64,000 nucleotides of DNA from a virus (IMGVR_UViG_3300036884_000163:1-64000), one strand, 5' to 3'. Shown: positions 15,293 to 64,000, counted from the stretch's first letter. A program made the numbers and translations. The notes: generated from the sequence alone by a model not told the origin.

Positions 15293-16989
15293 CGCCGCGA
15301 CTTCTCCCATGCCTCGATTCTCCGTCTGGCAGCACTGCCTCCGCTGTATGAGGATGGCCTGCCGCGCTGTTCTTCCTCTTCCTTAATTTTTCCCGCGTGG
15401 AACATGGCTGCAGTCGGATCGGTCTTCCACTGCTTTTCGATCCGCTCCTGAATTCTGACTTGCACCGGCGCCGTCACTCCCCGGTGGGTCTCGAACGAAT
15501 AGTAGAGATACCTGACGCAATCGTAAATGTCGTCAATGGGGTCGCCGCTAATTTTTAGTACGTCGTTCTCTTTTTTCGGATCGTGGATCCTCGACTCGAA
15601 CACTTCGATGGTTTGCTTGCAGTTCTCGCAGATAATCAGTTCTCCGGTTTCGAGACCGGTGTAGAGCTTCATGGCCCCGCCTTGGCGGTCGTTGCTGGCG
15701 GGACTGAAGTTGACTCCGTAAGGTCGGAGCACACTGTTCATCTGGCCGGCTAGAGTATCGGGATGGCCCTCCTCCGAGAAAGAGTCTGGCGAGAGATACC
15801 AGGGTTGCCAGCGGCGCTCGATAGGCTTCTTGTCTTCGTCCAGCACCCAGCGTTCGAGCAGCATCTTGGCAAAGTTTGCGGCGGTTTCCTGGCAGCCAAA
15901 CTCGTCTACGACCGCGACCCGTCCCCGTGGCCATCCGGGAGATGGCGGAATATGAACCGCTTCGTGAGCAGCCCCAATTGATATAGAAAATCCATAATCT
16001 GAGGCGCACCATCTCGGCCACCACCACTGCTCGTTCAGCACTCGCCGCGGGACCACCATCGGGCCGAAGCCCGGCGCGATCTTCATGGCTTCATCCCAGT
16101 CCATGCCCGGACGCATCCCACGCTGCGCGTCCCAGAGATCAAAATACTGACCCTCAAATATCTTCCAGCAGCCAGCGAGCAAAGCCTTGGACGTGGCCGC
16201 CGACTGCATCTTGAGTTTGGCTAGGTAGGATGCGGGATAGAGTGAGTGATCCCGGACGTTCGACAGGATGTAGGAGATTGACAGGCGTTCAATGCGTCCG
16301 TCTCCAAGGTCAATCGCAAGTTTCTGACCATCCGAAGGCCATTTTCCATCGTAACGCAGCACTCCTTGCGGTGGAGCATTCTGCGGTTCGCAGTGCGGAC
16401 ACACTCCACCCAGGAACAACTTCATGTGCCAGGTGTGGCCTATGTTCCCAGGATTTGTGCCCAGCCGGATGCGCGTCTTGAGGTTGGGATCTGTCGAGCG
16501 GCTCCTGGTGACCAGGTACCTGACCATCTTCTCTGGCCAGTGTGTCGATTCGTCGATCGCCAACGCACTCATGGCGTGGCCTTGGTAGGGATAGACGTTT
16601 TTTTCGTGCTGGGCGTGCCGGAAATAGAATTCTGCTCCGGAGGGCCACTTCCAGGTATGGGAACTGGAGTTGTACGTTGCCCCGGTCTGGGAGAATATCT
16701 TATGGCTCTGGTCAATGGCACCGTCGCCACCTTCCAGTTCTGCATAGGTGCGGCGGAAGAAGTACGAGCGCATGCTGGGGTAATCGCGCTCCTGGATGAG
16801 GTCTACAAGCATCGTGGAGGTCTTCAGCGAGCCTGCGGCACCGCCAAGTAGGAGAATGTCCGCCGGACAGTCCAGCGCGTCCTTCTGGGCCTTCGTAGCG
16901 GGCAGCCAGCGCCTTACTGGATCAGGTAGGACTTGGACATCGCTCGCGGGGAGGGGTGGAAGAATCTCTTGTTCGCGGGGACGGATCAT
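15289..16989 (-). CDS. terL: terminase large subunit
   Basis: LLGGAAGSLKT Walker A, FRRTYAEL, YQG, AIDES Walker B, GTNPG, DYG and DDIYDCVRY nuclease motifs. Confidence 0.93.
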   Translation of the reverse strand: MIRPREQEILPPLPASDVQVLPDPVRRWLPATKAQKDALDCPADILLLGGAAGSLKTSTMLVDLIQERDYPSMRSYFFRRTYAELEGGDGAIDQSHKIFSQTGATYNSSSHTWKWPSGAEFYFRHAQHEKNVYPYQGHAMSALAIDESTHWPEKMVRYLVTRSRSTDPNLKTRIRLGTNPGNIGHTWHMKLFLGGVCPHCEPQNAPPQGVLRYDGKWPSDGQKLAIDLGDGRIERLSISYILSNVRDHSLYPASYLAKLKMQSAATSKALLAGCWKIFEGQYFDLWDAQRGMRPGMDWDEAMKIAPGFGPMVVPRRVLNEQWWWPRWCASDYGFSISIGAAHEAVHIPPSPGWPRGRVAVVDEFGCQETAANFAKMLLERWVLDEDKKPIERRWQPWYLSPDSFSEEGHPDTLAGQMNSVLRPYGVNFSPASNDRQGGAMKLYTGLETGELIICENCKQTIEVFESRIHDPKKENDVLKISGDPIDDIYDCVRYLYYSFETHRGVTAPVQVRIQERIEKQWKTDPTAAMFHAGKIKEEEEQRGRPSSYSGGSAARRRIEAWEKSRR

Positions 16990-45857: not shown

Positions 45858-46295
45858 TTAAACACAGTGCCCGAAATACCAAGCGGCGACTTCGGCGCGC
45901 GTGGACATGCCGGTCTTATTCATCACTTCGCGCATGTAGTTTTTCACTACCTGCTCGCTGGTGGAAAGCAACACGCCGATTTGCTTGTTGGTATTTCCGT
46001 GCGCCACTCCCTCCAAGACCATTCCTTCTTTCAGAGTGAAGGAGTGCGCCATTCCTAGAGGGCAAACGAACTTTCCTGAAACATTCGTAAACAGGTTAGC
46101 GAGTTTCACCCGCTTTCCGGATTCTTTGATGCCCGCGTGCCGGAACAGCGTGCGCAGGTGCTGTTTCACTATCCCCATGCTGATGTTCAGGTGGCTCGCG
46201 ATTTCTTTGTTGCTGCATCCCTGCACCAGCAGACGCAGCACTTGCTGGTCACGGGCTGTGATCTTGAGCGCGGGTGTCATGACATTTTCGTGCAT
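45858..46295 (-). CDS. tandem LuxR-type HTH regulator without a receiver domain
   Basis: ITARDQQVL..L.QG.SNKEIA and FT.KE..VL..VA.G.TNKQIG. Confidence 0.88.
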   Translation of the reverse strand: MHENVMTPALKITARDQQVLRLLVQGCSNKEIASHLNISMGIVKQHLRTLFRHAGIKESGKRVKLANLFTNVSGKFVCPLGMAHSFTLKEGMVLEGVAHGNTNKQIGVLLSTSEQVVKNYMREVMNKTGMSTRAEVAAWYFGHCV

Positions 46296-49452: not shown

Positions 49453-49887
49453 TTACCAGTGCGGACTTTCGGCAGGGGCGCATTCAAACATCAGCGGCAT
49501 AGTGGATGGATGAAGAGAAAACGTAGCCTTGGAATCTTCGTAACAGCGGCGGCACTTGCCGTCGATCAGCGACGGAAACACGCATGCTCTAGTCGAGCAG
49601 CGGCCTTCGAGGGCGCGGCTTAGCAAGCGGCCGTCCTCTGCTGTACGTTCTTGTTCTGAGAGGATGTAGGGGCCTTTGCTGCTGCCTCGGGTGGGCCAGC
49701 CGACGTGATACCGAATTCCAGCCGCGATTAAGGCCTTACTGACGCAGGTACTACTGACGCCGACCCTCGCGGCAATCTCATACTGGGGCTTGTGCTGCTT
49801 GCCCATGGCAAGCACGATCTCCCGCACGTTGGCGGTGAGTTTTATTTTATGTGGCATTTTGGGAATGGCTACGCAGGAATCACCCAA
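49453..49887 (-). CDS. HTH DNA-binding protein with C-terminal Cys cluster
   Basis: PQYEIAARVGVSSTCVSKAL; C....C...C..C. Confidence 0.65.
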   Translation of the reverse strand: MGDSCVAIPKMPHKIKLTANVREIVLAMGKQHKPQYEIAARVGVSSTCVSKALIAAGIRYHVGWPTRGSSKGPYILSEQERTAEDGRLLSRALEGRCSTRACVFPSLIDGKCRRCYEDSKATFSLHPSTMPLMFECAPAESPHW

Positions 49888-49891
49888 GATC

Positions 49892-49975
49892 GCCCTCAGT
49901 TTTGGTCAGGGAAGAGGCCCCCGCTCAGCTACCGGCTGAGAACTGTCCCCGTTGCCTTGGGCAGCACCGGGGACA
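49892..49975 (-). ncRNA. putative structured RNA element, copy A (hairpin-hairpin-pseudoknot)
   Basis: TGTCCCCG/CGGGGACA, CTCAGC/GCTGAG, CGGGGG-CCTC-TTCCCTG-ACCAAAACT-GAGG; homologous to 63385-63487. Confidence 0.6.
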
Positions 49976-50283
49976 AGCTTTGGAAATTGTTCACAGAGTT
50001 TCCCTATTTGACCATCTATTTACTAGAGAATCAAGGAGTTGAGACGATTTTCTTGTGGAAATCATGCACTCAATCTTCCTGCTCCGCGTGCTTCTGTGCT
50101 TCCACTGGTTTCGTCGCCCGCGTCTCAGAATGAATCGAGCACGGTCCGACGTGGTTGGGCGGCCGTACCTGGCAGTAGGTCGAGGCTCGCTGAATGTCTT
50201 TGTATCCAGGCAGCGGGATGACTTTATTGCAGCGCATACTGTCCCTTCAGTTTGCTGTGCATACACACAGTTTTTCAGTCTTG

Positions 50284-50685
50284 CTATTTAGGTACGGCTT
50301 GCAAGTTAGATGCTGGGTTCGGAGGCAGAAACGGAATGAGAGCCTTCGCCTCGTTTGACGTTGCGCTCACACCCCCAGGGCCAGTTGCCGCAACCACGTA
50401 GTAATAAGTGGCTCCCTCAGTCAGTACGTTTCCAGTTCCCGATGTGTCCACGTAGGTGAACTGGGTCACCGGAGGACAGGTTGGCTGGCCAGTTCCGCCG
50501 CAGATCGTTGCATACGGGCCGCCAGTTACGGTACCGCGCTGAACGATAAAGCCAGTCGCCTGACCTCCGTTGCCTTGAGTCCACGTCCATGATAACGTAA
50601 CGGTGTGTTGAGCAAGCGCGAAGGTAGGGCTTGCGATGAACAAAACGGTGATAAACAAAACGGTGAATAACAGTAGTTGTTTCAT
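50284..50685 (-). CDS. exported fibronectin type III protein
   Basis: Signal ...SPTFALA-Q; VTLSW...F.VQRG..TGGPY...YVD...TYYYVV.A...S..SNEA. Confidence 0.85.
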   Translation of the reverse strand: MKQLLLFTVLFITVLFIASPTFALAQHTVTLSWTWTQGNGGQATGFIVQRGTVTGGPYATICGGTGQPTCPPVTQFTYVDTSGTGNVLTEGATYYYVVAATGPGGVSATSNEAKALIPFLPPNPASNLQAVPK

Positions 50686-50963
50686 AATCTCCTTGATTTG
50701 CCAGCACCATAACTTGGACCCGTAATGATGCAATCGCAGCAATCATCACTACCATTCTCACAGAGTGGCTCCACGAGCGGCATGAAGTCCTGGGGATGGC
50801 GGGTGACAATGGGCAGGGCCACGCACCATCCTACATCTTCAATCTGTATGGTTAGATCGCAAGGTTTCAACTCGCCATCAAGAGCAGGTCCGCCTTCTAC
50901 TCCTACCGGCTGATCCTGCCCCCATGCCATCGTTGCCAGCAAAAGTACCAACGCGTATTTCAT
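50682..50963 (-). CDS. small exported Cys-rich protein
   Basis: MKYALVLLLATMAWG-Q; GAGGAG RBS. Confidence 0.65.
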   Translation of the reverse strand: MKYALVLLLATMAWGQDQPVGVEGGPALDGELKPCDLTIQIEDVGWCVALPIVTRHPQDFMPLVEPLCENGSDDCCDCIITGPSYGAGKSRRL

Positions 50964-50976
50964 TTATCTCCTCGGT

Positions 50977-53900
50977 TTAGTGGTCCGGGTAAGGACCATG
51001 AGTTCCACAGTATGCTCCAGCTGGGCATACATAGCCGTTTTGTGTCATCGCAGTGTTCATTTGGGTTGTATCGACTCCCTGCGTTTTGTATATGCTTGTT
51101 GCGTCATAAGCAAGGTTTGAGAGTGTGAGATTATTCGCCCAAGGTAACGCCATCAGTGGGCAATTAAACGGGGCATTCCCATTAGGGCACGCGCCTGTGG
51201 GGTAGGTAACTGTAGGACTGCTACCCATAAACCCGGAGTACCCAAGACAGGTTCCGTCTGCTGTCGAAGTCGCGCAGTTAACCGTAGTCGGAAAGTGGTT
51301 GGTGCAGTCAGTGACTCCAGCGGGACAACCTACCACACTCCAATTACTCCCCGTACCTTGGTTCTCTAAAACATTACGATAGAACTGGAAGCTCGCTAGA
51401 TCCCATGATTGAAATGCAGTCGTTCCTTCGCCCGCCGGAGCCGTGCTATAAACATCCGAACTGGCTCCCGTGTCGGTAGTCGCGAAAACATTGTCATGGA
51501 AGAAGTTGGAAATCGGCGAGTGCCATGCGCCGAAATTGGTAATTGCGAAGTTGTTTGGAGAAAGAAACGTGTTGTGCTGGAGTGTTATAAAACGTCCTAA
51601 TCCGGCACCATTATTGACAAGGCAGTTAGTTATTCCCGGTGCAGGCGCTGATGTTAAATTGTACTTGACAATCAATCCAATCGTCGCGGTTTCACCAATC
51701 GCATAGTTAGCCGTAGTTGATCCCGTCGCATAACCGTTGTCGGCGCAGGTAGTGTCTCCACCACCTATGTTATGCGCATAAACTCCATCACCGCCGGCAA
51801 TGGCAATCATCTTCCCCGCCAGCGAGGCAAACGTGAGCGTGCCAGAACCGATTGCTGTATTACAGGCGGCAAGAGTGCTGCAAACCGTTCCTGGGGTTGA
51901 TGCTGGGTCGTTGTAAACGATTGTTTGCCCTCCCGTGCCGTCGCTATAGCCTGCCCATTGTCCACTGGTCCCAGTCATGGCGAACGAACCGGCAGACAGT
52001 GCACCGGTATTTGGGCTAGTTCCTACGATGCTACTACCGACTATGATCGGACACGTCGTCCACGAAGCGCCGCTCGTAATACAAGTGCCAGCCGCAGAAG
52101 TGGAGAGTGTCGGGTCAAGACGGATACTGGCGTGCAAGATGGTAACGTTGTGACTGCTATCGACGGTAATACTCTGGATGTGGGCGGGACTCTTAATGTC
52201 GGTCTGGAAGGGGGAACAGTTCGCCGTTACCGTGTATAGGCTGGGCGAGACGGTGACGTAGGACATGGCGCAGGTATAGTTATTCCCGTTGCCAGAAGTC
52301 CACTGCCACATATGACCGGGCGTGTTGAACTGGTTAGTATCCCCAATATTGGTGAACAGGTTGTTGATGAAGTCGTTATGCCCCACGGGCAACGTGGTGC
52401 CACCGCCGTTTCCAGTGTTCATGTCGCCACGCCCAATCATCTGCACTGGATTCGGAGCATTGCGTATCCAGTTGTTGCTTAATCGCACATTATCAAGGTA
52501 AGAGGCAGGTCGTCCTGTAGCCGGATCGAATACTCCTGCCGCTTGTCCGCCAGAAGTGGCTTCAACAAGCAGTAGGACGGCGAATCCACTCTGCCCGTCC
52601 GACCATGTATTTTCTATGATATTTCCATCCACCAAATTACGGTGCCCCTCTTTCGCCTCAAAACTATTCTTGACGGACCACGGGAAAGGACAAGTGTTAT
52701 GCGATGCGTACTTGCTTTCGAACGTTCCGCATCCCCAAGGAGGAGCTGGACTGTTAGCTGCACCGCCTGTAAGGAGACGCCAATTCAGGTCTCGGCCAAG
52801 ATAGTTTTTACGGATTTCGTTATCCGACCCCGGTCCGCCATTTTGATCTGCTGGAGCGCCTCCAGAGAAAAGAGTTTCCGACCCTCCCTCCATCCAGTTG
52901 TTCACAATCTTCGTTGGTCCGTTATCGAAGCCGTAGGTGGCAGCCTTTGTTTCACTAGACCAATGATGAATCTTTTCAATATAACCATTCATTAGCCAGC
53001 CATTGTCGATGTTGAACGTAACGCCGGCAGATGAATCGTCTCCGCAGCCGGGGGTATAGTTTGACGGTGGATTGATTTGAAGATATTGGACCCCTGTTTG
53101 CGTTCCTGGTTGGCCGTTGATCGTCAGGACTGTGTTTGAGGTCGTCGGATCGAAATCGGAAATCGTGTAGTTGGCTCCGCCGCTGATCGAGCCTCCGGCT
53201 CCTGAGGGAAGATTAGACATCGTGCCGCCGATGTTGATTGTCGAAACGGGACTGACGGTGAACGTGGGGCCGAAAAACGTATTGCCGAACGCGAGGGTGG
53301 GAACCGTGCTCGTAAGCGTGACCGAACCATGCGTGCCGTCAGTGTTCGCCGTAGTGACCGTTCCGGAGTTGTACCATGATAAACAATTTCCGGTCGCATC
53401 CACGCTAGATCCAGTCGTTGGTTGGCCAGAATCGCCGGGATCCCATCCATGTACGTAGAAGCGGTCGAGTCCAACATAGTTCACCGACAAAGGTGACGCG
53501 GGTCGCGTAGCAAGAGGGTTACTTTGTCCGTGGAACAAAACGGGAACAGTAGAACCGTTCTTGCTTGGAGCCGCCCCTGGCTTCGTTGTGATCTCCACGT
53601 CGCGGATGACAATGTGATTGGTAACGTTGGTGGACGTGACCGGATCTACGCTCGCCTCAATGCCCGTGTCACCAGTAGCAGGAACAACATCAAGCATCAC
53701 CGTCCACATGCTCGCTTTGTCGTTGGGAAGCACTCCAGGATTTGTGTGTCCATCGCATCCGGGGTTACGCGCGCCACCAAAACCTGGAAGTCCGCGACCG
53801 CAGGCCATCACGCCAGCAGTGAGAGGAGTTGTTGATTCGAGCGTTAGGCATTGCGTGGGTTCTACGCCAGTGCTGGGGTTAGCTTTGCCAGGAAGGCTGA

Positions 53901-55611
53901 TGCAATTACCGTTGTGCACCCCTGCAAAGTCGGATGACGTACAGTGCAACACGGTTCCGGATGGAATCTTGATACGCCACGATTTGTCCAAGTAACCGCC
54001 CCCAATGGTGTTTCCACCATTGTCACGCCAGTTATAGCAGGCGTCGAGTAATCCAGCGGGCGTGAGAGCATAAGCCGCGCCAAGGGCTTCGCCTGCAACG
54101 TTTGGCCCATTGTTGACCGACGTTCCAAGAGTCAGGTCAACGTAGTAAGTTCCCCCAGGCGGATTGCAGACGGTATCGTCTACCCATTTGATTGGGAGCG
54201 CAGCGCAAGCGAGCGGGATCCCAAAGCAATCGCCCGAAGAAGGGGGAGGAGCAGGGCTGCCTACAACCGCTACTAAGTTAATGCCTCCGCTACCCGAAAC
54301 TGCCGCGAAGCGACCTACTCTTGTGCGTCCAGGGTTTGGCGCGACCTGGCCGGTGCCGGTAAGGCTAACGGTCTGAGTGCTGCCCCCAACGCCCCCGGAA
54401 TCGTCCGTCACGGTCAAGGTTCCGGTGCGCGTTCCTGTGGTAGTCGGAGTGAAGGTCACTGAGATTGTGCAAGAAGGATTAAGGCCTCCTGTCCCGGATA
54501 ACACACTAGGACAAGTATTCGTCTGGGCAAAGTCACCTGTGATCGAAATGGAAGCGATATTCAAATTTGTCGTGCCGCCGTTTGTCAATGTAACCGTTTG
54601 ACTGAAACTGGTGGTCCCGGTTTGCTGCGCAGCGTAAGTTAATGTATTAGGTGAAATCGTCGCATAAGAAGTAGTGATTACATATGCAGCGGACGCGACC
54701 GCAGAATCTGCAAGGCTGGCGGTCCCAGCCACGGCGTAGAGCGTTTCACTTACGTTTACAGTTACGCTTCCTCCGTTTGCAAGCGGTGTGCCCGTTGTGC
54801 AATTGATACCGTCCCCAGTGGTCTGCGGATTGGACATTAGGCCATAGCAAATCAAAGCACCCGTTGTTGAGCTGGTAATCGCAACGCTCAGAGCGCTGGA
54901 GGACGTGCCTCCGCCCGGATAAAATGTCGGCGTAGCGGCATTGGAGATTTCCGTAAAAGCAATCGCGCTCAGGGCGGCTTGCGCGGTGTCCTGCGTCCAT
55001 GCCGGCGCCGTGCCGCTCGACGTGTTGATGCTCGTGGCAAATCCTGAATTGCCGCTGAAATCTTGGTATGTGCTGTAGGGAGACGATACGGCGGTAGGAA
55101 TACTCCCCCAGATAATTTGATAGATCGCATCGCTCGATCCCGCCAATGTCAACGTGACTCCGGCGGGACTCGTCGTGTTCGTGGTCTGAGCCCTGGTTGC
55201 CGGACTTCCTGTATCCACTATGGCAGAGACGCCAGTGAAAGAAAGTTCCGTAGCCTCCACCCTCCATGCGAATGTAGTGGTGTCAGTTCGTGTCACCGTG
55301 ATCGTTGTGGCTCCGCTCGTGCTCGATAGGGTGTAAGCGCAATCCGAACCATTGGTTGTGCTCTGGACGCCATAGCAACCGGCGGGGTGAGTGTAAGTGC
55401 CTCCGCCGCTGACGCTGACAATCTGTTCCGCGTTGCTTAAAATGCCGAACCCTATAACAATGACGTGACCCGATCCTGTACTCGCTACGGTTATGTCGCA
55501 CGTCGCAGAGGTCGTGACGCAGGTGCCAGAGACAGCATGTTGCACCACGGCCCACGAGGCCCACGCGGGCGAGCCTATCAGCAGTATCAGCGAAAGTAGA
55601 AGTCGTCTCAT
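50977..55611 (-). CDS. exported multidomain beta-helix depolymerase/adhesin (beta-sandwich, CHB_HEX_C-like, ASH/choice-of-anchor D, pectate-lyase-like)
   Basis: Signal MRRLLLSLILLIGSPAWA; ATPTF.P.GGT; QTVTLTN.G...GDFAQTNTC...CTISVTFTP; GP.KIVNN..EG, VKN.FE.K...DGNI.EN. Confidence 0.85.
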   Translation of the reverse strand: MRRLLLSLILLIGSPAWASWAVVQHAVSGTCVTTSATCDITVASTGSGHVIVIGFGILSNAEQIVSVSGGGTYTHPAGCYGVQSTTNGSDCAYTLSSTSGATTITVTRTDTTTFAWRVEATELSFTGVSAIVDTGSPATRAQTTNTTSPAGVTLTLAGSSDAIYQIIWGSIPTAVSSPYSTYQDFSGNSGFATSINTSSGTAPAWTQDTAQAALSAIAFTEISNAATPTFYPGGGTSSSALSVAITSSTTGALICYGLMSNPQTTGDGINCTTGTPLANGGSVTVNVSETLYAVAGTASLADSAVASAAYVITTSYATISPNTLTYAAQQTGTTSFSQTVTLTNGGTTNLNIASISITGDFAQTNTCPSVLSGTGGLNPSCTISVTFTPTTTGTRTGTLTVTDDSGGVGGSTQTVSLTGTGQVAPNPGRTRVGRFAAVSGSGGINLVAVVGSPAPPPSSGDCFGIPLACAALPIKWVDDTVCNPPGGTYYVDLTLGTSVNNGPNVAGEALGAAYALTPAGLLDACYNWRDNGGNTIGGGYLDKSWRIKIPSGTVLHCTSSDFAGVHNGNCISLPGKANPSTGVEPTQCLTLESTTPLTAGVMACGRGLPGFGGARNPGCDGHTNPGVLPNDKASMWTVMLDVVPATGDTGIEASVDPVTSTNVTNHIVIRDVEITTKPGAAPSKNGSTVPVLFHGQSNPLATRPASPLSVNYVGLDRFYVHGWDPGDSGQPTTGSSVDATGNCLSWYNSGTVTTANTDGTHGSVTLTSTVPTLAFGNTFFGPTFTVSPVSTINIGGTMSNLPSGAGGSISGGANYTISDFDPTTSNTVLTINGQPGTQTGVQYLQINPPSNYTPGCGDDSSAGVTFNIDNGWLMNGYIEKIHHWSSETKAATYGFDNGPTKIVNNWMEGGSETLFSGGAPADQNGGPGSDNEIRKNYLGRDLNWRLLTGGAANSPAPPWGCGTFESKYASHNTCPFPWSVKNSFEAKEGHRNLVDGNIIENTWSDGQSGFAVLLLVEATSGGQAAGVFDPATGRPASYLDNVRLSNNWIRNAPNPVQMIGRGDMNTGNGGGTTLPVGHNDFINNLFTNIGDTNQFNTPGHMWQWTSGNGNNYTCAMSYVTVSPSLYTVTANCSPFQTDIKSPAHIQSITVDSSHNVTILHASIRLDPTLSTSAAGTCITSGASWTTCPIIVGSSIVGTSPNTGALSAGSFAMTGTSGQWAGYSDGTGGQTIVYNDPASTPGTVCSTLAACNTAIGSGTLTFASLAGKMIAIAGGDGVYAHNIGGGDTTCADNGYATGSTTANYAIGETATIGLIVKYNLTSAPAPGITNCLVNNGAGLGRFITLQHNTFLSPNNFAITNFGAWHSPISNFFHDNVFATTDTGASSDVYSTAPAGEGTTAFQSWDLASFQFYRNVLENQGTGSNWSVVGCPAGVTDCTNHFPTTVNCATSTADGTCLGYSGFMGSSPTVTYPTGACPNGNAPFNCPLMALPWANNLTLSNLAYDATSIYKTQGVDTTQMNTAMTQNGYVCPAGAYCGTHGPYPDH

Positions 55612-56303
55612 TATGGTTTCAACTCGATTGCGGCCGCTTTCCAAACGCCAGTAGTTTGAGTCGCCGTACAATCTATCGTGGCCGGCGAAGCGGACGTGTT
55701 ATCGACGAGCACTCCGTTATTTGCGGTAGTGGTCACCGCCTGACGTGGAGTTCCAACCGTCACCGTCATTACGTGGGTCGCACCGTCACCCAGTCCGCAG
55801 ACTATGTAATCGTTGCTATAGGATGTAGCCACGGCAATATCCGCCGTCGTGCTACTTCCATTGTTGACGCTTCCCGAACCCACCACGGCAGTAACCCCGG
55901 AATACCCTTCTTCCACTACAAAGCCGGTTCTCGCCGTAGTCCAGGATAAGATATAACTCGTGACTCCAGAAGGAACCGATGCTTGATAGAGGGACGCAAG
56001 AGGAGAGACTGCCGGACCCACGCTTAGAGCATTGCTCAGATTATCGACCCCACTCAGCGCGGTTATTGAGCTGCTGGTGTAAAGATAGATAATCGAAGTG
56101 CTTCCAGTGGCAGGCGACGGAGAGGGTGTGACTGTTACTGTTGAGTTTGAGGTAAACGTGGCCGCATATCCGTTGATCGCAGGCGTGATTGTTCCACCAC
56201 CGCCCGCCACCGGTGGTTTAGAACCCACCACGCTTAGCCACTGAAAGCCAGATCCAATTGCAATCAGCACTGCCAACGAAATGATGATTCCAAGTTTTCT
56301 CAT
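55611..56303 (-). CDS. exported beta-sandwich protein, paralog of the N-terminal domain of 50977..55611
   Basis: Signal MRKLGIIISLAVLIAIG; E.YSGV...D.IV.G...AAAIELK. Confidence 0.75.
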   Translation of the reverse strand: MRKLGIIISLAVLIAIGSGFQWLSVVGSKPPVAGGGGTITPAINGYAATFTSNSTVTVTPSPSPATGSTSIIYLYTSSSITALSGVDNLSNALSVGPAVSPLASLYQASVPSGVTSYILSWTTARTGFVVEEGYSGVTAVVGSGSVNNGSSTTADIAVATSYSNDYIVCGLGDGATHVMTVTVGTPRQAVTTTANNGVLVDNTSASPATIDCTATQTTGVWKAAAIELKP

Positions 56304-56304
56304 G

Positions 56305-59300
56305 TTAGCTGCTCGTCGATGTGCCGGCTAAGGTCGTACATTTCAGACTGTAGGCCGAAGCACCAGTCTGAAACGAGAAACAGGAGAATGAGTTCCCAAT
56401 TCCTGGAGTGGCGAAGATGATATGAGTCACTCCGGATGCAGAACCATCGAGGTATATATTCGCTGCGGTCGTGCCATTTGTGACCGAATTATATTGCCAA
56501 GCATAAGCTCCGGGAGCCGTGCCGACGATCATAATAAAATTCATGCCCGCCGCTGGCGTCGGACCCGTGATCGCTACCGCAGCCGTCGTCTGACCATAGT
56601 TCCATGCCATCGCATTCGAAAGTTGCGCTGCGGTCGGACTGCAAGCCGTATGACAGTCGATGGATTGTGGAGTGACAGATGCGGTAGTCAACGTAGGGGA
56701 GGTCGAAGGCGCTTTGGCGTTGAGTTGTGTTTGAATGCTAGATGTAGGATCGACATAACCCATGACCGTCGAAGTCACGCCGTCCACCGTTTTGTTGGTT
56801 AAGACCTGTGTGTCAGTCGTTCCAACGATTGTTCCCGTGGGGGCCGCGACGGACGAGGTAATCGTATTCGCTGTTGCCGCGACTGGGATCTGCGTTGCCG
56901 TCATTCCAGAGAGTCCGCTGCTGCCGGCCGCGCCGAATGGCCCCACGGTTCCACCATTGATTCGGGCATACATTCCAGCAGTAGTGGTCCATAAGTCTCC
57001 GTTTACTGGGCTAGTAGGTGCGGAACCATGCGGAACATTTAATCCAGTAGTCGTAGTAGTAGATGCAGCCGTTACAACTTCTGCGGTGTGGGTTTGCACC
57101 GCTGTCCAAGTCGCCGCCCGACCGAGAAACCCAGCACAACCAAAATTATGCACTACAGCGGATCCATCGCTGTACTCGGCGCTAAAACAATGGTTCGTTG
57201 AATCAAACGTGGTTTCGTGCGTAAAAATTGGCAATGTCGTGTCTAGTGCGCCTTCGGTGGCCAAGTCGTAGGGAGGAGTTCCACCTGAATTTCCTGTGAT
57301 TGGCGTACCCTCAGAAAACGAAGTCGTGGAGGCTAGGGTCGAGAAAAAGCCTGGCGCCGGAGTTGTTCCACCGATTGTTGGCGGCGCAGCGTAGCTTTGC
57401 GTTGCGAAGGTTCCAAACGCCACATTGTTGGTTTTGGTGCAGGTAGCGACGCCCGTGCTGGCGAGCGTGCAGTCTTGGCTCAGGGCCGTTGGCGCATAAG
57501 CGGTTCCACCAGAATTTCCAACCGCCAGGTAGCCTGCCCCCGGCGCGGTGTTTGGCATGACTGCGGCCTTCGTCTGCGCGTCGTTGGTTACGCTGCTCAG
57601 GCCGACAGACGTTTTCGTAACCGAGATCGCGCCCGCCGTATTTAGGACGCTGGTGCCATCCGGCTTGACGCCGCCCAAAACAGATGCAGTGGCCGTCGGC
57701 AGCGAGTAGAGCGCCGCGAAGGCCCCTGTGTTCAAAGCTCCCGACGCTGACGGTTTCTGGCCGTGCGTTCCGTCTGCAACCATTGGCACCTCTGCGGTTG
57801 TTCCCGGATCAGAGGAGGTCGCCGTGCCCGCTGCAGAACCAAACACCGTTAGCGTCGTTGCCCAGGCCGTGCAAGGCGTTCCTATACAAACTGGAACTCC
57901 TGGTGTGGTGGGCCACGTCATCGCGCTACCGGAGGATCCGCAGCCTGTTCCGGTGGATAAAATCACGCCTGAAGAAACATTGAGGCAACCATTCGACAAG
58001 CTGGCTAGCGTAACACTCTGATCGAACTTCGCCGGAACGTTGAACTCTTTCAGCGATGCGGTCAACCTTTCCAGCCAGTTTGCGGTTACGCCATCGCCAA
58101 CCTGCGCGATGTAATTCGTAATTGACACCGGGGCTCCAAACGCAAGCTGCCCCGAACTCAGTCCCACTCCGGCGCTCGGCACATCCGTGCCAATCCACGT
58201 ATCGTTCGCACTTGCTGGTGGACGATACCCCCACGTTGCTTGAGTCAGGGCAGGCTGGGAATCAATCAGTGTGATGATATGGTGTGGATTTAGGCCCGGG
58301 GTAAACAGGGAAAAATTCAGTCTTCCTTTTGCTAAGACCGAAAAGGAATTATGGGGGTTATTGTCCTGCAAGAACGTGGCGGTGGCGTTAGGGATGCTAT
58401 TATTCGTGGTATTGATACTCGACAAACAAACTGTAGCTCCTCCTGGCGACGCTGCTCCGTAGACCGAGCACCGATTCGCAACCTGAATCGGATCTCCATA
58501 CAATCCAATTCCTACGACGTTCCCTACTTCCACATCTACCTTAACAGTTTTGTTGACCGCTACTATTGAACCGGGCCAGAAGTTTAATTGTCCTGCATAA
58601 TTCCCAGCCTTAATCGTGTATGCGGAAGTGGATGACGATCCTGTATCAGTGTAAGTACAAACCAACGTCCCCGAACAAGCCGTGGCTTGAGATAGGTTGT
58701 GCGCCACATATCCGCACGTCCCACCCGATCCACCGGGGCATCCGCCATTGTAGGGATAGACTGCACCGACTCCAACCGGAGTTGTCATGCGGATTACGTC
58801 ATAGGTGATCGTGTCAGTTCCGTTTGCCACTCGCGGCCAACTAACCGGAATTGAATCGCTTCCGGTAGAACTCCAATTGAGAATCTGCATCGGAGAGGTT
58901 TGCGTATTGGCAGTCGTATCATTGGCTACGATGTAATAGGTGTATGGCGTAGCGCCAGCTGCCGTTCCGAACACCGTCCCTGCGGTTAAAACAGAGCTTG
59001 TCGTCAACTGAAAAGTGCTGGAATTGCTTGCAGTGACTGACCAAGTACCGTTGTACCCTGATGGAGTCATTCCGGTTATGGCTACGTTGTTTGTTCCTGT
59101 GCCGGGATTCAGTGTTGACGTTATTGTGATCGTGTAAGTAGGGCCACCACCAGATTCACTGGCTGCCGTGATCGCGGCACTGGAGACGCCAGCCTGAAAC
59201 GCACCCTCAGGTGCCGGTCCGGCAATCTGAAAATTTGCATTTAGGGTCGATTCTCCGGCAATCAAACCAGCAATTCCAAGACCAGGAAAGGGAGACTCGG

Positions 59301-61848
59301 CAGCGGAGCACGAGGATGGATAGCTACTACAAGGCGGATTGGCGGCAGCGCTGCTCTCGGAGTAGATGTTCTTAAGGTAGGCTCCCTGATAGTTTCCGGT
59401 GGAGTTCGATGAATACACTTGCCACAACGAGGTGGCCTGAATGACTGTGTTCTCGATGTACAACCCGTTCGAATTATAGACGGTTATTCCTAGTTGTTGA
59501 GAAGTGATGTTCGAGTCGCGCAGCGTGATGACCGAAGCGTGATTATGCGCTATGTTCATCTGGCCACCCGAGAAGACATAGGAACCGATCCACGTTGCAC
59601 CACCGTTTAATCCCGCGCTATTGTTATTGAAGTGGTCAACGGTCGCGTTCTCGTCATCCCAGAAATCGAAGAAATTATTGAATGCACCGTTCTCTCCTAC
59701 AAGGTCGCCAGAAATATCGTTAAAGTGTGTACCGTTTGCATTGTCCAAAATCGCTTCATAAGCTAAGGCAACGACTCCGGGAGTATTCATGGAAACGGGC
59801 GCTCCGGGATGTGCGTAAGTATAGGTCACACTCGACGGCACGGACGTAATAACGGCATCTCCCCAATAAGTTGAGCTGTCCGTAAACATCTGCGTAACTA
59901 TGTCACCCGGACGAAATCCGTGGGCGGATGCCGTGGTGATTGTAGCAATGCCGCCAGAGAAGGATGTGTTGGTAATGTTTACGCCAGCATATGCGGCGAT
60001 AGATGAGTGATCGGTTGGAGTACGGAAACTGATGCCTTGAATGGTGTTACTTACAAAATCATTGGCGTTTACGCGATCGCCGACCTGGATACAAGCTCCA
60101 CGCCCAACGCAATTCAGGGAGGTTCCATATCCGCTCAGTGTAGACTGGTTAGCGTGGACGAAGATCGTGCCGTAAACGTTGTAGTTGTTTATTGAATGCG
60201 GATAGCCTGGACCGTTCGCAGGAATTGTTACATTGCATTGGGCGTTCTTGTAGTACGTTGGGTCGGTACCGCAAGCGACGTTGACCGTTTCCTGAATGCC
60301 AGAAGAGGCCGAACCGATTGTGTAGGCAGAGTGTGAGAAGAAGGGCGTGAAGAGAATGGTCCCTCCACTCCCCGCGGTATAAGTGCCACCCGTCACGTTC
60401 ACTGCTTCGCTATTTGAACCATCCGTGATGTAGACCTGATAGCCAGCGCCCGAACTCACGTCAATGCCAACGATTCCCGAAGCAAGAGTCACAGTTGCCG
60501 CCGTATTCGCCGTGAGCGCCGTAGTCGAAGATTTCGACCAGTTCATCGCCGATGTCACGTAGGCGGTGGGGGGATTAGGACATTCCACACTGACATTCGG
60601 AGCCGACTGCTGAAACAGGCAGTTAAAATAGCCAGTCTGCGGTGCGGGCGTTGCAGCGTTCAGGTTGGCCGCCGACTGCGATACGCTGTTTACGCTGAAG
60701 GGGAAGCTACCAGGCGAAGGAACTGGGATCCATGTCTGGTTGCCAGCAAGAATCGTAGCCGAGTTCGCCGCGCCACTGCCTAGTTGAGCCGTGGGCACAT
60801 ACCCACCGACCAGGCTCGCCTTGGCGGCTAAACCGGTGTCCACATATCCCTTGTTGCTTGCGTGGTTAATCGCCGTAGGGTTCCCTGGCAGCGTGATCGG
60901 ACCTGTGACCGTTCCCCCGACGAGCGATAGATAAGAGCCGCCCGAGCCAGGGGCGAACTGGCTAGCGAGATTCCCTACCGGGCACCCAAGCGAGATGTCG
61001 CCAGTCGTATCCGTAGCGAAGTTGCAGTTCAGAAATCCCGCGCCAAAGAGTGGCAGAACGTTGTTGAAGTTCGCCACCGGGACGGTGCTCCCAAGCGGGA
61101 CGCTGTTCACGCTGATGTTCGCCGCCCCTACGACACCGACGCCCAATCCGATGACGGTCGCCTGCGAGAAGTCGAAGAGGCCTTTAAAGAATGCCGAGGT
61201 GCCGGTTGGCTGCGTCCAAGTCTGGCTGTTGATGGGATTGCCGAAGAGTTGATAGAAGCCGGGAGGCGGGGGAATCACGGTGCACGGCTGCGTCAGGGCA
61301 GGATTGAAGGTGTCGCCGCTCGTCAGGCAGTAATACTCCGGCTGTCCGCCGGCTTGGTTGCTCGCTTTGTACTCGGTTACGAGCCACTGGGTAGAGTTCA
61401 CGTTCCCACAAAGGATTTGGTCTTGCCCGTAAACACTACCAGCGATTAGACCTGTGGTCGGATTAGGACGCATATCGAACTGCTGCGCGACGATGGCAAA
61501 GGCATTTCCTTGTACCTGGGGGACGTTATTTCCACAGTTCCACAGTTCGAAGTGGAGATAACCGGTCTTTTGAATGTTGCCCTGGCCGTCGGTAAGCGTT
61601 GCTGTGACGGTGACGCCGGGAGCTTGAGCGTAGGCGCACACTCCAAGCGTTAGCAGGGTGATAGCCGATAACGCCTTGAGTAACAATGCACGCATTCTAA
61701 TGAGGCGCCCATGCGCCCGAGCTTCCACCGAACGACACCGCGCGCAGCAGAAGACACCAGTCGTTTGCCCTGGCGAGCCCTCTGTGTCCACGTGACCGAA
61801 CAATCGGCACAACACAATGAGCGCTAACGCCTTGAGAGTAGGTCGCAT
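56305..61848 (-). CDS. giant tail-fibre-like protein; internal start at 61695 yields a Sec signal peptide
   Basis: Fibre motifs HASNKGYVD, YSLPTATASVLGGVK, VGLSSVTNDAQ, LTNKT; central beta-helix; MRALLLKALSAITLLTLGVCAYA-Q. Confidence 0.85.
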   Translation of the reverse strand: MRPTLKALALIVLCRLFGHVDTEGSPGQTTGVFCCARCRSVEARAHGRLIRMRALLLKALSAITLLTLGVCAYAQAPGVTVTATLTDGQGNIQKTGYLHFELWNCGNNVPQVQGNAFAIVAQQFDMRPNPTTGLIAGSVYGQDQILCGNVNSTQWLVTEYKASNQAGGQPEYYCLTSGDTFNPALTQPCTVIPPPPGFYQLFGNPINSQTWTQPTGTSAFFKGLFDFSQATVIGLGVGVVGAANISVNSVPLGSTVPVANFNNVLPLFGAGFLNCNFATDTTGDISLGCPVGNLASQFAPGSGGSYLSLVGGTVTGPITLPGNPTAINHASNKGYVDTGLAAKASLVGGYVPTAQLGSGAANSATILAGNQTWIPVPSPGSFPFSVNSVSQSAANLNAATPAPQTGYFNCLFQQSAPNVSVECPNPPTAYVTSAMNWSKSSTTALTANTAATVTLASGIVGIDVSSGAGYQVYITDGSNSEAVNVTGGTYTAGSGGTILFTPFFSHSAYTIGSASSGIQETVNVACGTDPTYYKNAQCNVTIPANGPGYPHSINNYNVYGTIFVHANQSTLSGYGTSLNCVGRGACIQVGDRVNANDFVSNTIQGISFRTPTDHSSIAAYAGVNITNTSFSGGIATITTASAHGFRPGDIVTQMFTDSSTYWGDAVITSVPSSVTYTYAHPGAPVSMNTPGVVALAYEAILDNANGTHFNDISGDLVGENGAFNNFFDFWDDENATVDHFNNNSAGLNGGATWIGSYVFSGGQMNIAHNHASVITLRDSNITSQQLGITVYNSNGLYIENTVIQATSLWQVYSSNSTGNYQGAYLKNIYSESSAAANPPCSSYPSSCSAAESPFPGLGIAGLIAGESTLNANFQIAGPAPEGAFQAGVSSAAITAASESGGGPTYTITITSTLNPGTGTNNVAITGMTPSGYNGTWSVTASNSSTFQLTTSSVLTAGTVFGTAAGATPYTYYIVANDTTANTQTSPMQILNWSSTGSDSIPVSWPRVANGTDTITYDVIRMTTPVGVGAVYPYNGGCPGGSGGTCGYVAHNLSQATACSGTLVCTYTDTGSSSTSAYTIKAGNYAGQLNFWPGSIVAVNKTVKVDVEVGNVVGIGLYGDPIQVANRCSVYGAASPGGATVCLSSINTTNNSIPNATATFLQDNNPHNSFSVLAKGRLNFSLFTPGLNPHHIITLIDSQPALTQATWGYRPPASANDTWIGTDVPSAGVGLSSGQLAFGAPVSITNYIAQVGDGVTANWLERLTASLKEFNVPAKFDQSVTLASLSNGCLNVSSGVILSTGTGCGSSGSAMTWPTTPGVPVCIGTPCTAWATTLTVFGSAAGTATSSDPGTTAEVPMVADGTHGQKPSASGALNTGAFAALYSLPTATASVLGGVKPDGTSVLNTAGAISVTKTSVGLSSVTNDAQTKAAVMPNTAPGAGYLAVGNSGGTAYAPTALSQDCTLASTGVATCTKTNNVAFGTFATQSYAAPPTIGGTTPAPGFFSTLASTTSFSEGTPITGNSGGTPPYDLATEGALDTTLPIFTHETTFDSTNHCFSAEYSDGSAVVHNFGCAGFLGRAATWTAVQTHTAEVVTAASTTTTTGLNVPHGSAPTSPVNGDLWTTTAGMYARINGGTVGPFGAAGSSGLSGMTATQIPVAATANTITSSVAAPTGTIVGTTDTQVLTNKTVDGVTSTVMGYVDPTSSIQTQLNAKAPSTSPTLTTASVTPQSIDCHTACSPTAAQLSNAMAWNYGQTTAAVAITGPTPAAGMNFIMIVGTAPGAYAWQYNSVTNGTTAANIYLDGSASGVTHIIFATPGIGNSFSCFSFQTGASAYSLKCTTLAGTSTSS

Positions 61849-62072
61849 CAGTCTTCCGCGTGCTCGAGCACCACGACGTTCTCCGCCTTCAGGCCCTTCT
61901 CGCCTTTGGTAACATCAAACTCCACCACGTCACCCTCGGTGAGTTTGCGGTAGCCCTCGGCTTGGATGGCGCTAAAGTGAACAAAAGCTTCTCGGTTGCT
62001 GCCATCATCCAAAATCAGAAAGCCGTATCCCTTAGCGTTGTTAAACCACTTGCAAATGCCTCGTTCTGCCAT
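61848..62072 (-). CDS. csp: cold-shock (CspA-family) protein
   Basis: KWFN..KGYGF (RNP1), AFVHFSAI (RNP2), L.EG..VEF; AAGGAG RBS. Confidence 0.95.
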   Translation of the reverse strand: MAERGICKWFNNAKGYGFLILDDGSNREAFVHFSAIQAEGYRKLTEGDVVEFDVTKGEKGLKAENVVVLEHAED

Positions 62073-62111
62073 AGCGATCTACTGCTCCTTTTCATCTGTG
62101 AATTCTTGCTT

Positions 62112-62429
62112 CTACTGGAAATCGCGGTGAAACGTATGCTCGCCCACCACCACGGGTCTGGCTTCTTCTAACGCTCCAATCATCGCTGTCGAGATGGGCG
62201 GGATAGGCTCGAGGGTGGGGTTGGCGCAGTCGCGATGAACTGTCGCTACTGGGTCGTTGGCACCTATATAAATCACCGTGCGCCACTTGTGATTGCGCAA
62301 AATTTGCTGCTGGCATTTCGCGCAGATGCGCTTCTGTCGCTGATTGCCTTTTTTGGCACGTTTCTTCGTCAACGGGTTACGACGATAGAACGCTACTCCC
62401 CATTTAATCCACTGCCTGAACGTCTTCAT
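62112..62429 (-). CDS. basic CxxC...H..C protein
   Basis: GGAG RBS; CAKC...HRDC. Confidence 0.55.
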   Translation of the reverse strand: MKTFRQWIKWGVAFYRRNPLTKKRAKKGNQRQKRICAKCQQQILRNHKWRTVIYIGANDPVATVHRDCANPTLEPIPPISTAMIGALEEARPVVVGEHTFHRDFQ

Positions 62430-62445
62430 AGCTTCACTCCACCTT

Positions 62446-62835
62446 CTACCGCTCATTCGTGGCTCGCACACTCGTTTTGCGGTCTCGCGCACCATGCGCC
62501 CCTGCCCTAACTTTGAACTGACCAGCTCGGCCGCCAACGACGCCCTCAACTAGCTGCATCGACTTCCCAACTGGACCGCCGAGTTCGCCGGAGATCCCTA
62601 CGCCGCGCCAGATCACGGCGATCACCGGCGCCACTACCCAGCCATCAATGAGCCACCGCCACCGCGCAATCCCTTCTGGCTTCTTGATTTCCGCTTGGGC
62701 CGCGGTGAGGTCGATGTGCATGTGATGCCCGCGCGTGGGATATTTACCCATTTGACATGCGGGGTAGACTTGGTGAAATTCGAGACTTTCGGCCTCTCTC
62801 CGACTAAGAAGACAACACTGATAGCGCTTACTCAT
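62446..62835 (-). CDS. hypothetical protein
   Basis: ATGA coupling to the HNH gene. Confidence 0.55.
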   Translation of the reverse strand: MSKRYQCCLLSRREAESLEFHQVYPACQMGKYPTRGHHMHIDLTAAQAEIKKPEGIARWRWLIDGWVVAPVIAVIWRGVGISGELGGPVGKSMQLVEGVVGGRAGQFKVRAGAHGARDRKTSVRATNER

Positions 62836-63320
62836 GCGGCCCTCTTTCTTTGCCGCTTGTTGCGATTCTGTTCAACGGCTGTGGCCCAGCGGCAGTTGCC
62901 CGGTTCGTAGTTGCCGTTGTTTTCGATCCGGTCAATGCTGTGTGCAGGAGAAGGGCGTGGCCCCATATCAGCGAAGAAGTTCTCGAACTTCCGCCAGCGC
63001 TCACAGATCGTGATTCCACGGCCACCGTAGTACTGGTAATTTGAAGCCTTTGGGTTACAAATCCGCTGGTTCATGCTTCTCCACGAGTTGTTCGTCAGGG
63101 ACCCAGACATTCCGTGGAGGGTGTTTCGATGAAGCAACTTTTGGCGCAGGAGACATCCACAACTGTGAATGCCATCCCGACGCAAATTTCCCGACGTTAC
63201 GACGCATAACTTGCCGCAGTCACAGGAGCACAACCATGCAGCCCAACGACGGATTCTCCCTGCTGGCCAGCGGGCGATCAGGCGCCCAAAGCGGTGATTT
63301 GTTTTATCGTGGATTTGCAA
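62832..63320 (-). CDS. HNH homing-endonuclease-like protein
   Basis: [52 protein letters not shown]. Confidence 0.9.
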   Translation of the reverse strand: MQIHDKTNHRFGRLIARWPAGRIRRWAAWLCSCDCGKLCVVTSGNLRRDGIHSCGCLLRQKLLHRNTLHGMSGSLTNNSWRSMNQRICNPKASNYQYYGGRGITICERWRKFENFFADMGPRPSPAHSIDRIENNGNYEPGNCRWATAVEQNRNKRQRKRAA

Positions 63321-63384
63321 TTTGAATTTGTGTGTGCGGAGAAGTGCTATTGCTCAATCTCGGGGTGCGAGATCGCCGCGAGTA

Positions 63385-63487
63385 GCCCTCCAGTTTTGGT
63401 CAGGAAAGGAGGCCCCTGTCAGGAAGAAACCCGGTCAGCGGTTCCTGAAGTTTCCCGGCACCGCTCGCGATACGTTACCGGGGAACT
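63385..63487 (-). ncRNA. putative structured RNA element, copy B (hairpin-hairpin-pseudoknot)
   Basis: AGTTCCCCGG/CCGGGAAACT, TCAGGAA/TTCCTGA, CAGGGG-CCTCC-TTTCCTG-ACCAAAACT-GGAGG. Confidence 0.6.
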
Positions 63488-63563
63488 GACAACAGTTTGC
63501 ATGGATTTGCTTTTACGATAGCCGTATTCACAGAAATAAATCAATCTTAAAATCTCTCTATTC

Positions 63564-63572
63564 TGTGGATAA
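63564..63572 (-). promoter_or_regulatory. perfect DnaA box (TTATCCACA) in an AT-rich intergenic region
   Basis: TGTGGATAA on +; near-match GTATTCACA in the opposite orientation at about 63524-63532. Confidence 0.45.
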
Positions 63573-63580
63573 CGCATGTG

Positions 63581-63876
63581 TTATAGGTAAGACGGCGAGG
63601 TAATCGCGAATTCTACTGGCATCCCGCCAGCAATCCGCCTTGCAAGCATGCGGCACCCCACCTTGCACCGTAGGTCTTCCGACCATTCCTTTACGGTGCG
63701 CGTCTCTCCGAAAGCGGTCACGGTTGCCTTGGTTGATCCGCCCTTGTTGCGTCCCAGCCATCGACTGTTGCGCCGATTCTGGGCCTGCTCTTTTCGTGTG
63801 GCCCATTTGCAGTTCCCAGGTTCGTAGTTGCCGTCATTCTCGATCCGCTCGATGGTCAGGCCGGATGGCCTGCGCC
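63581..63876 (-). pseudogene. C-terminal half of an HNH nuclease, interrupted at its 5' side
   Basis: [28 protein letters not shown] present; N-terminal half replaced by unrelated sequence. Confidence 0.7.
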
Positions 63877-64000
63877 GGTAGTGGGCTACTTTGAATTTCA
63901 TTGGTTTAGTTTCCCTTGCCATGGCATACTGAAACCATGCCAAAGCGTATAAGCAAACGACCAATTGACATAAACCAAGCGGCATTCCAGATGGTGCATC
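63877..64000. mobile_element. probable end of an insertion element (IS1595-like terminus) running off the window
   Basis: GGTAGTGGGCTACTTTGAA lies exactly at the HNH breakpoint; resemblance to IS1595-family ends is from memory only. Confidence 0.4.

Follow-up and report, generated by a model that had tools for sequence, protein, structure and literature searches.

The virus genome IMGVR_UViG_3300036884_000163 carries two copies, A and B, of a sequence element on its minus strand, copy A in front of an ORFan gene and copy B in front of an HNH endonuclease gene. The window analysed here comprises bases 1-64000 of this 72,949-nt IMG/VR record, which CheckV rates as 100% complete. The repeat of a core, located at 49892..49923 in copy A and 63385..63418 in copy B, is real. 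This core could fold into an H-type pseudoknot, in which a strand resembling the 3' tail of the host 16S ribosomal RNA (rRNA) pairs with a Shine-Dalgarno (SD) sequence. The two copies are tentatively interpreted, with limited confidence, as a duplicated 5'-leader cassette that acts as minus-strand RNA and masks the SD ahead of accessory genes. Most likely, the element is an ordinary kind of leader and not yet a proven new RNA class. A preliminary description of the same DNA had proposed a cis-regulatory RNA with covarying copies. A cis-regulatory leader is still the best reading, and no Rfam family was matched. The covariation, based on two sequences, is weak evidence for it.

The repeated core and its candidate pseudoknot

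The strings quoted in the preliminary description were found on the minus strand where it had placed them, and the common core C(G/A)GGGG-CCTC(C)-TT(C/T)CCTG-ACCAAAACT-(G)GAGGGC is present in both copies. Local alignment of A with B spans 39 columns on the minus strand (49892-49927 versus 63385-63421), from the last bases of the second hairpin through GAGGGC. Its score of 47 compares with 17.3 +/- 2.4 in 500 dinucleotide shuffles, none of which scored as high. The stretch CCTGACCAAAACTG, regarded as invariant from the outset, is identical in both copies. It has two matches in the window at up to two mismatches. In the whole record, two matches are found at up to one mismatch, exact occurrences likewise number two, and the reversed control gives none. 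The parts of the two copies are listed below, with SL1 and SL2 denoting the two stem-loops, S1 and S2 the stems of the candidate pseudoknot, and L1 and L3 its loops.

Copy A
49944..49975, minus strand: SL1 (UGUCCCCG...CGGGGACA), found in the minimum free energy (MFE) structure and in the centroid structure
49924..49940, minus strand: SL2 (CUCAGC-CGGUA-GCUGAG), found in the centroid structure
49892..49923, minus strand: core, candidate H-type pseudoknot; S1 pairs 49918-49923 with 49907-49912, S2 pairs CCUC 49914-49917 with GAGG 49894-49897, and L3 is ACCAAAACU at 49898-49906
49832..49859, minus strand: second block, AAATGCCACATAAAATAAAACTCACCGC, covering an internal ATG at 49855-49857

Copy B
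63452..63485, minus strand: SL1 (UUCCC(C)GG...CCGGGAA), from sequence and fold
63419..63448, minus strand: SL2 (UCAGGAA, 16-nt loop, UUCCUGA), read from the sequence
63385..63418, minus strand: core, candidate H-type pseudoknot; S1 pairs 63413-63418 with 63401-63406, S2 pairs CCUCC 63408-63412 with GGAGG 63387-63391, and L3 lies at 63392-63400
63291..63316, minus strand: second block, AAATCCACGATAAAACAAATCACCGC, corresponding to codons 2-10 of the HNH gene

The second block, which is absent from the preliminary description, is a further region of similarity at the 5' ends of both downstream open reading frames (ORFs), and 2 to 6 of 1000 shuffles align as well, the number varying with the scoring scheme. 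It is separated from the core by a spacer of 32 nt in A and 68 nt in B. Since the block is located at both ORF starts, the duplicated unit is a leader-plus-start cassette with a variable spacer.

Both copies carry a CCCCGGT-bearing hairpin and a hairpin closed by TCAG/CTGA, as reported previously. In the MFE structure of copy A, the 5' arm of SL2 pairs instead with CUGAGGGC of the core, which constitutes an alternative fold. For copy B, SL2 as read is replaced in the MFE structure by a shifted inner helix together with an outer one, UUGUCAG/CUGACAG. Treated as separate hairpins, S1 and S2 have energies of -7.2 and -4.3 kcal/mol in A, and of -5.4 and -7.6 kcal/mol in B. Plus-strand folds of the elements are no better than those of the minus strand.

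The genome was scanned with a descriptor of H-type pseudoknots that requires 5-6 bp in S1, 4-5 Watson-Crick bp in S2 and 7-11 nt in an A-rich L3. Only A and B are matched, both on the minus strand, with no match on the plus strand; shuffled genomes yield 0-3 matches (mean 1.4). When the local regions are shuffled, such a knot arises in 5 of 3000 cases for A and in 10 of 3000 for B. Four differences distinguish the two cores: a G/A change facing U, a C/U change facing G, and an extra C in one strand with an extra G to pair with it. Pairing is either maintained or extended by every one of them.

Predicted Shine-Dalgarno pairing, neighbouring genes and related phages

The 3' tail of the 16S rRNA reads GGATCACCTCCTTTCT in both of the two Acidobacteriaceae genomes checked. 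Copy B contains CCUCCUUUC, a 9-nt copy of this host-lineage tail that can pair with GGAGG, while copy A keeps CCUC, which can pair with GAGG. The pairing partner of the SD resembles the anti-SD of the host 16S rRNA. Because CCUC(C) matches the 16S tail and pairs with (G)GAGG, S2 is interpreted as an anti-SD mimic positioned on an SD. The genes and intergenic regions concerned are the following.

49976..50086, minus strand: AT-rich island upstream of copy A, GC content 0.37, by-eye promoter TGGTCA-17-AACAAT
49453..49887, minus strand: 144-aa ORFan, TTG start 5 nt after GAGGG, possibly a helix-turn-helix (HTH) and zinc-ribbon protein
63581..63901, minus strand: HNH endonuclease fragment of 106 aa (C-terminal HNH part and tail), immediately upstream of copy B
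63488..63580, minus strand: AT-rich island upstream of copy B, GC content 0.355, by-eye promoter TTGATT-18-TATCGT
62832..63320, minus strand: HNH endonuclease gene, 162 aa, phrog_374 (E 1.8e-55)
62446..62835, minus strand: 129-aa gene, homolog of the first gene after the leader in the relative G001 (G001:11859-12167, E 6.8e-8, 41% identity)

In copy A, GAGG is contained in S2 and the TTG start follows 5 nt after GAGGG, inside the range of 4-10 nt set for a start codon behind an SD held in a helix. The SD sequestration suggested earlier fits copy A, and it does not fit copy B, where the TTG of the HNH gene is about 65 nt away from the core with no SD site ahead of it. The only database match of the ORFan is its own cluster, which is 144 aa long, so the gene caller used the TTG start as well. 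Its earlier designation as an HTH gene is reduced to a lead. The protein-atlas look-alikes are of the HTH_23, HTH_38 and Sigma70_r4 types at 0.81-0.86, which is below 0.9 and hence at lead level, but Pfam and PHROGs gave no match. The HNH fragment upstream of copy B matches positions 58-141 of the 196 positions of phrog_3377 (E 3.4e-21), and shares with the HNH gene a 58-nt stretch that is 83% identical.

The location of both copies directly below AT-rich islands is confirmed by their low GC content relative to the genome (0.554). The genome holds 24 such low-GC islands, and the one at copy B is the lowest of all (minimum 0.322). Both islands are likely promoter regions, judging by their sequence. 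A promoter consensus scan gave no match upstream of either copy. The transcription-unit starts that the preliminary description saw at the copies are putative.

In the proposed mechanism, transcription of each copy would begin at a sigma-70-type promoter within the adjacent upstream AT-rich island. The transcript would start with the two GC-rich hairpins, which may serve as 5' protection or as a folding scaffold. These would be followed by a compact H-type pseudoknot, in which the 16S-tail mimic (CCUC in A, CCUCCUUUC in B) is placed on the SD (GAGG in A, GGAGG in B), with the A-rich linker ACCAAAACU running across the G-C-rich first stem. For copy A, this would mask the SD of the TTG start 5 nt downstream and so hold down translation of the ORFan as long as the knot is neither opened nor bypassed. 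The knot of copy B would have been parted from its ancestral gene by the HNH homing-endonuclease gene. If functional at all, it would now be only a leader or stability element, a leftover of its former role. The cassette of core and second block may thus have been reused before two accessory genes, the ORFan HTH-like gene and the HNH endonuclease gene. If the knot gates translation, this would be a familiar trick, with an anti-SD mimic masking the ribosome site before selfish or accessory genes; it would be useful for annotation and unsurprising.

The closest full relative, G001, is syntenic (terminase 65%, capsid 66%). Its late arm begins with a 230-nt leader, which is directly followed by the homolog of the 129-aa gene. 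In the genome studied here, the HNH gene is located between leader B and this G001-type first gene, and the SD site of copy B is orphaned because of this intervening gene. Folding of the G001 leader indicates strong structure, with z = -2.35 and an equally good fold in 2 of 200 shuffles. It comprises two long hairpins and then at once a candidate knot of the same geometry as in A and B (11668-11779), which the descriptor identifies as GCACGG-U-ACCGC-AG-CCGUGU-GGAAAAGAAGC-GCGGU. Such a knot is found in 4 of 3000 shuffles of the leader. In the MFE structure of G001, the last hairpin pairs AGAGG ahead of the first ATG. On visual inspection, SL2 of G001 is closed by a helix (CUUAGC/GCUAAG) similar to that of copy A (CUCAGC/GCUGAG), with a change from C-G to U-A. 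Rfam returned nothing relevant for this leader, and short core matches within G001 (CTGACCAAA, AAACTGAGGGC) were within chance. The predicted G001 knot is analogous to A and B in shape only. The relative G002 and the prophage remnant G003 stop short of the leader region and are not part of this comparison.

Several observations weigh against a leader that masks an SD. The sequences upstream of the core are not similar between A and B (the score is reached by 255 of 500 shuffles), and SL1 and SL2 are not detectably homologous. Of the shared architecture described at first, the core and the presence of two GC-rich hairpins remain. The claim of covariation stands insofar as all four core differences are compatible with pairing, but it lacks statistical support. 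When two random substitutions and two random insertions served as the null model, the knot was kept in 18,287 of 100,000 trials and a pair was gained in 5,335; with transitions only, the numbers were 27,705 and 7,841 of 100,000. The knot is thus kept in 18-28% of trials, and changes of the "compensatory" kind are expected by chance in 5-28%, which makes them suggestive at best for a set of two sequences. Statistically supported covariation across homologs, by which conserved RNA families are recognised, was not obtained from the two homologous sequences. The folding energies of the whole elements are ordinary, with z = -1.11 for A (27 of 200 shuffles fold as well) and z = -0.82 for B (46 of 200). 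By our own reasoning, the lack of a loop between S1 and S2 (L1 = 0) is sterically tight unless a terminal G-U pair opens.

Further points of this kind come from the genes, the relatives and the sequencing data. Between GGAGG of copy B and the HNH start, there is no ATG, GTG or TTG, except for one TTG that opens a frame of 17 codons. Because copy B has no fitting start codon, masking of an SD is not the present function shared by both copies. In copy A, an in-frame ATG at 49857, within the second block, represents an alternative start. Sequence comparison of G001 with A and B gave nothing significant (88, 326, 383 and 525 of 1000 shuffles reach the scores), and the descriptor found no such knot in the leaders of the complete relatives G004, G155 and G156; the G156 leader folds with z = -0.9. 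Finally, none of the listed sequencing runs in which the phage was found is an RNA run.

Further copies, alternative explanations and genomic context

The preliminary description could not match the element to a known riboswitch or ribozyme, and Rfam 15 gave no match at gathering score across the 64-kb window. At E<=10, nothing appears near copy B, and near copy A there are two matches, PK1-TEV_CVMV, located outside the element on the opposite strand (15.7 bits, gathering score 40), and sR10 (8.7 bits, gathering score 45). No further homologs were found by pattern searches of IMG/VR or with a covariance model in Acidobacteriaceae genomes, and no third copy was detected in IMG/VR, JGI metagenomes, GTDB genomes or GenBank phages. 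The GenBank phages also gave no match to the capsid protein. The covariance model of the core, R1, scores 58.7 bits for A and 61.3 bits for B, both being the sequences from which it was built. Over 258 kb of this phage and its relatives, R1 recovers A and B only. The next match (13 bits, E = 2) is located within a small membrane-protein ORF of G004, and G155 and G156 give no match. The single match in 151 Acidobacteriaceae genomes (E = 0.073) was judged to be chance. The protein downstream of copy A, used as a probe for the locus, found nothing, and a literature search found nothing on leader RNAs of Acidobacteria phages.

The exact 14-mer of invariant bases is present in at least 116 stretches of IMG/VR with 102 distinct contexts, including both window copies, and none of the other contexts among the matches listed has the flanks of the core. 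Followed by AGGG, it occurs in five IMG/VR stretches, which represent one sequence before the prohead-protease gene of an unrelated phage. This context was judged to be chance, because stems of at least 6 bp are found in 3 of the 102 contexts (counted up to 8 bp). The 14-mer is located there inside a 7-bp stem, CCCCCTA/TAGGGGG, in the gap between portal and protease genes and just before the prohead-protease ATG, an anatomy like that of S2. In GTDB genomes, 14-mer plus AGGG is found in 13 stretches, none with the 5' half of the core. The pattern GGGG...YCCYTGACCAAAACTG has no match in IMG/VR and three in JGI metagenomes, none with the S2 partner. A contig of an Anaerolineales metagenome-assembled genome (MAG) contains, at 3340-3470, two direct copies of ACCCGCC(A/T)GACCAAAACTG about 110 nt apart, with GAGGG after the second.

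After the leader cassette, the explanation that survives best, although unlikely, is that of a functionless duplicated 5' flank, which was carried along with inserted or recombined accessory or selfish genes (HNH, ORFan) and in which hairpins and knot are incidental. HNH genes are present on both sides of copy B, one of them a fragment, and the homology comprises only the core and the ORF-start block, with spacers of unequal length. The lack of a further copy in any collection searched, the ordinary folding energies and the non-significant covariation are also consistent with it. However, identity drops sharply outside the core, whereas inside it 14 bases are invariant and both indels are compatible with pairing, which suggests selection on the core and not a recent copy. 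In addition, a 16S-tail mimic would hardly come to pair with a perfect GGAGG by accident, and an analogous knot is found at the same position in G001.

Less likely again is a processive antitermination RNA of the put or nut type. In this case the leader itself, or a phage protein on the invariant linker, would let the host RNA polymerase read through the long minus-strand late blocks. Each of the two copies is located below a likely promoter and heads a long block of co-directional genes, and in B and G001 a distance of 65-75 nt separates the knot from any start codon. The core is kept within the genome, while the G001 knot is similar in geometry with another sequence, a pattern that would be expected of a co-evolving, phage-specific factor. 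The hairpins and the A-rich strand over a G-C stem are comparable to HK022 put (PMC9378689). The put-like antiterminator of the preliminary description is an idea by analogy, and none of the tests made here supports it. Intrinsic terminators are not in excess in the two blocks (14 versus 19.1 expected, and 21 versus 20.9), and no terminator directly follows either leader. Furthermore, the 40 ORFs scanned included no recognisable N-like or Q-like protein, N proteins being too short and divergent for such searches to exclude one, and the architecture is missing in three of the four full-length relatives.

A bolder form of this idea is speculative and improbable. It holds that the hairpin-hairpin-pseudoknot arrangement is a lineage-specific nut- or put-like leader, which binds polymerase or a phage factor and licenses the late arm, its shape being conserved (A, B, G001) and its sequence co-evolving with the partner. 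If true, this would be a new class of phage antitermination RNA in Acidobacteriaceae phages. To our knowledge, no phage regulation has been described in this phylum, and almost nothing is known about gene regulation in Acidobacteriota phages, although Acidobacteriota are abundant in peat. If the shape common with G001 is that of a polymerase- or factor-binding leader, it would offer a first entry point to the control of late genes in these phages.

It is equally doubtful that the repeat is a DNA-level operator or promoter site, at which two late units would be activated by a phage regulator such as the 144-aa protein or the LuxR-like protein encoded at 45858-46295. Such a site would fit an invariant stretch of 14 bp found in two intergenic regions that adjoin AT-rich DNA, and the phage encodes HTH regulators, the 144-aa protein at lead level. 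However, no conserved dyad or direct-repeat half-sites are found, and B does not retain the partial CCTGA/TGAGG dyad seen in A. The core of A ends 5 nt ahead of the start codon, which leaves no space for a promoter downstream, and the indels keep RNA pairing, not DNA spacing. The LuxR-like gene (45858-46295, minus strand) encodes 145 aa with two LuxR/sigma-region-4-like HTH domains and PHROG matches to "sigma factor" and "transcriptional regulator" at about 1e-12. Its sequence makes it a candidate regulator of late genes, and a LuxR-type gene is located near the equivalent place in G002.

STAB-SD elements are known 5' stabilisers of mRNA. A role of this kind, in which terminal hairpins and a GGAGG far from start codons guard long late transcripts against decay that depends on the 5' end, has very little probability, as GGAGG is predicted to be paired to the internal anti-SD mimic, which would block 30S binding, even though the GGAGG of B, which is attached to no ORF, precedes the start codon by about 65 nt and the hairpins are near the likely 5' end, going by the by-eye promoters.

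The genes of the phage run in two directions. Rightwards from about 63.9 kb, over the record ends and up to about 15 kb, they lie on the plus strand; among them are genes for a C5 methylase, an AAA_24 ATPase and an IS1595-type transposase. The minus-strand genes extend from about 63.9 kb to that of the large terminase (15289-16989), and their products include an endolysin, a CspA-family protein and two giant fibre-like proteins (1847 and 1564 aa). The gene of the CspA-family cold-shock protein (61848-62072, minus strand; Pfam CSD, E 6.4e-25) immediately precedes the giant fibre gene within the unit that copy B heads, and its product could act as an RNA chaperone on structured leaders. The transposase gene, outside the window at 66599-67573 of the record, belongs to the IS1595 family (DDE_Tnp_IS1595, E 1.6e-41) and also encodes the associated zinc ribbon.

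The record starts with about 55 C residues and carries at least 14 copies of a 15-nt tandem unit at 17-316, which recurs at its last bases (72890-72949). This region looks like a pentapeptide-repeat-like gene split by the assembly, and because the gene is split across the record ends, the genome is probably circularly permuted. An exact 23-nt repeat of SD and start codon (AAGCTTCTGGAGGACAAGTCATG) is found at 12522-12544 and 12701-12723, before two plus-strand ORFs, and several repeats of 26-55 nt at 939-1900 mark paralogous small genes.

The relatives point to Acidobacteriaceae as the probable hosts. An Acidobacteriaceae MAG carries G003 as a decayed related prophage (at about 74-81 kb of its contig) with 70% capsid identity. 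Its capsid gene is frameshifted, its portal gene is in three pieces, one with an in-frame TGA, and the phage genes end directly after the portal gene. The phage itself is present in 20 peat metagenome runs from 17 studies. Contigs from four of the peat runs were compared over 49700-63650 and are essentially identical where covered. One contig spans copy A with no differences, and none links copies A and B. None of the differences listed is inside either element. Because the contigs are nearly identical and the elements contain none of the listed differences, natural variation is uninformative on covariation. Nearly all differences listed are located at 58000-60300, within the gene of the 1847-aa fibre-like protein (56305-61848, minus strand). 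These include 261 nt skipped with a 36-nt substitute, a 283-nt diverged block and a 20-nt deletion. The region is hypervariable and probably linked to host range, and no reverse transcriptase was recognised among the ORFs scanned.

Comparison with known leader RNAs

Leaders that mask an SD are known from the T4 lysozyme gene e, soc, I-TevI and other homing-endonuclease genes, and pseudoknotted operators are exemplified by E. coli rpsO/S15. As in the phage leaders of this group, a pyrimidine-rich, anti-SD-like strand can pair with the SD just before the start in copy A, an accessory or homing-endonuclease gene is attached in copy B, and the setting is the late region of a phage. In contrast to them, the helix would here be part of an H-type pseudoknot after two hairpins, and no embedded late promoter is evident. 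Furthermore, the masked site of copy B has no start codon, and there is no sequence relationship.

The riboswitches preQ1-I/II and SAM-II are small H-type pseudoknots with an A-rich tail, in which the SD is hidden. The candidate knots of A and B are similarly compact (about 32-34 nt), combining a G-C stem, an A-rich crossing strand and an SD in the 3' helix. They differ from these riboswitches in having no Rfam match even at E<=10 and in a knot sequence that is not conserved in G001. In addition, S2 uses up the loop and leaves no obvious ligand pocket, and no related metabolic genes are nearby.

Nut sites of the lambda type consist of boxA and a boxB hairpin and act with an N-like protein. The core shows no similarity to the rRNA spacer of one Acidobacteriaceae genome, in which no boxA-like word was found.

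The put RNA of HK022 is about 70 nt long, consists of two stem-loops with a minor-groove triplex in stem I, and is present in two copies; it binds the zinc-binding domain of the RNA polymerase beta' subunit and suppresses terminators without protein factors (PMC9378689). As portrayed there, put is formed by two long stem-loops without a pseudoknot and belongs to the early operons of a lambdoid coliphage, which distinguishes it from A and B (PMC9378689). Like putL and putR, A and B are two sequence-sharing copies per genome downstream of promoters, here likely ones, and would form a multi-hairpin RNA of 70-100 nt (PMC9378689). The third strand in the minor groove of the put stem may be analogous to the A-rich L3 proposed to cross S1 in the element described here (PMC9378689).

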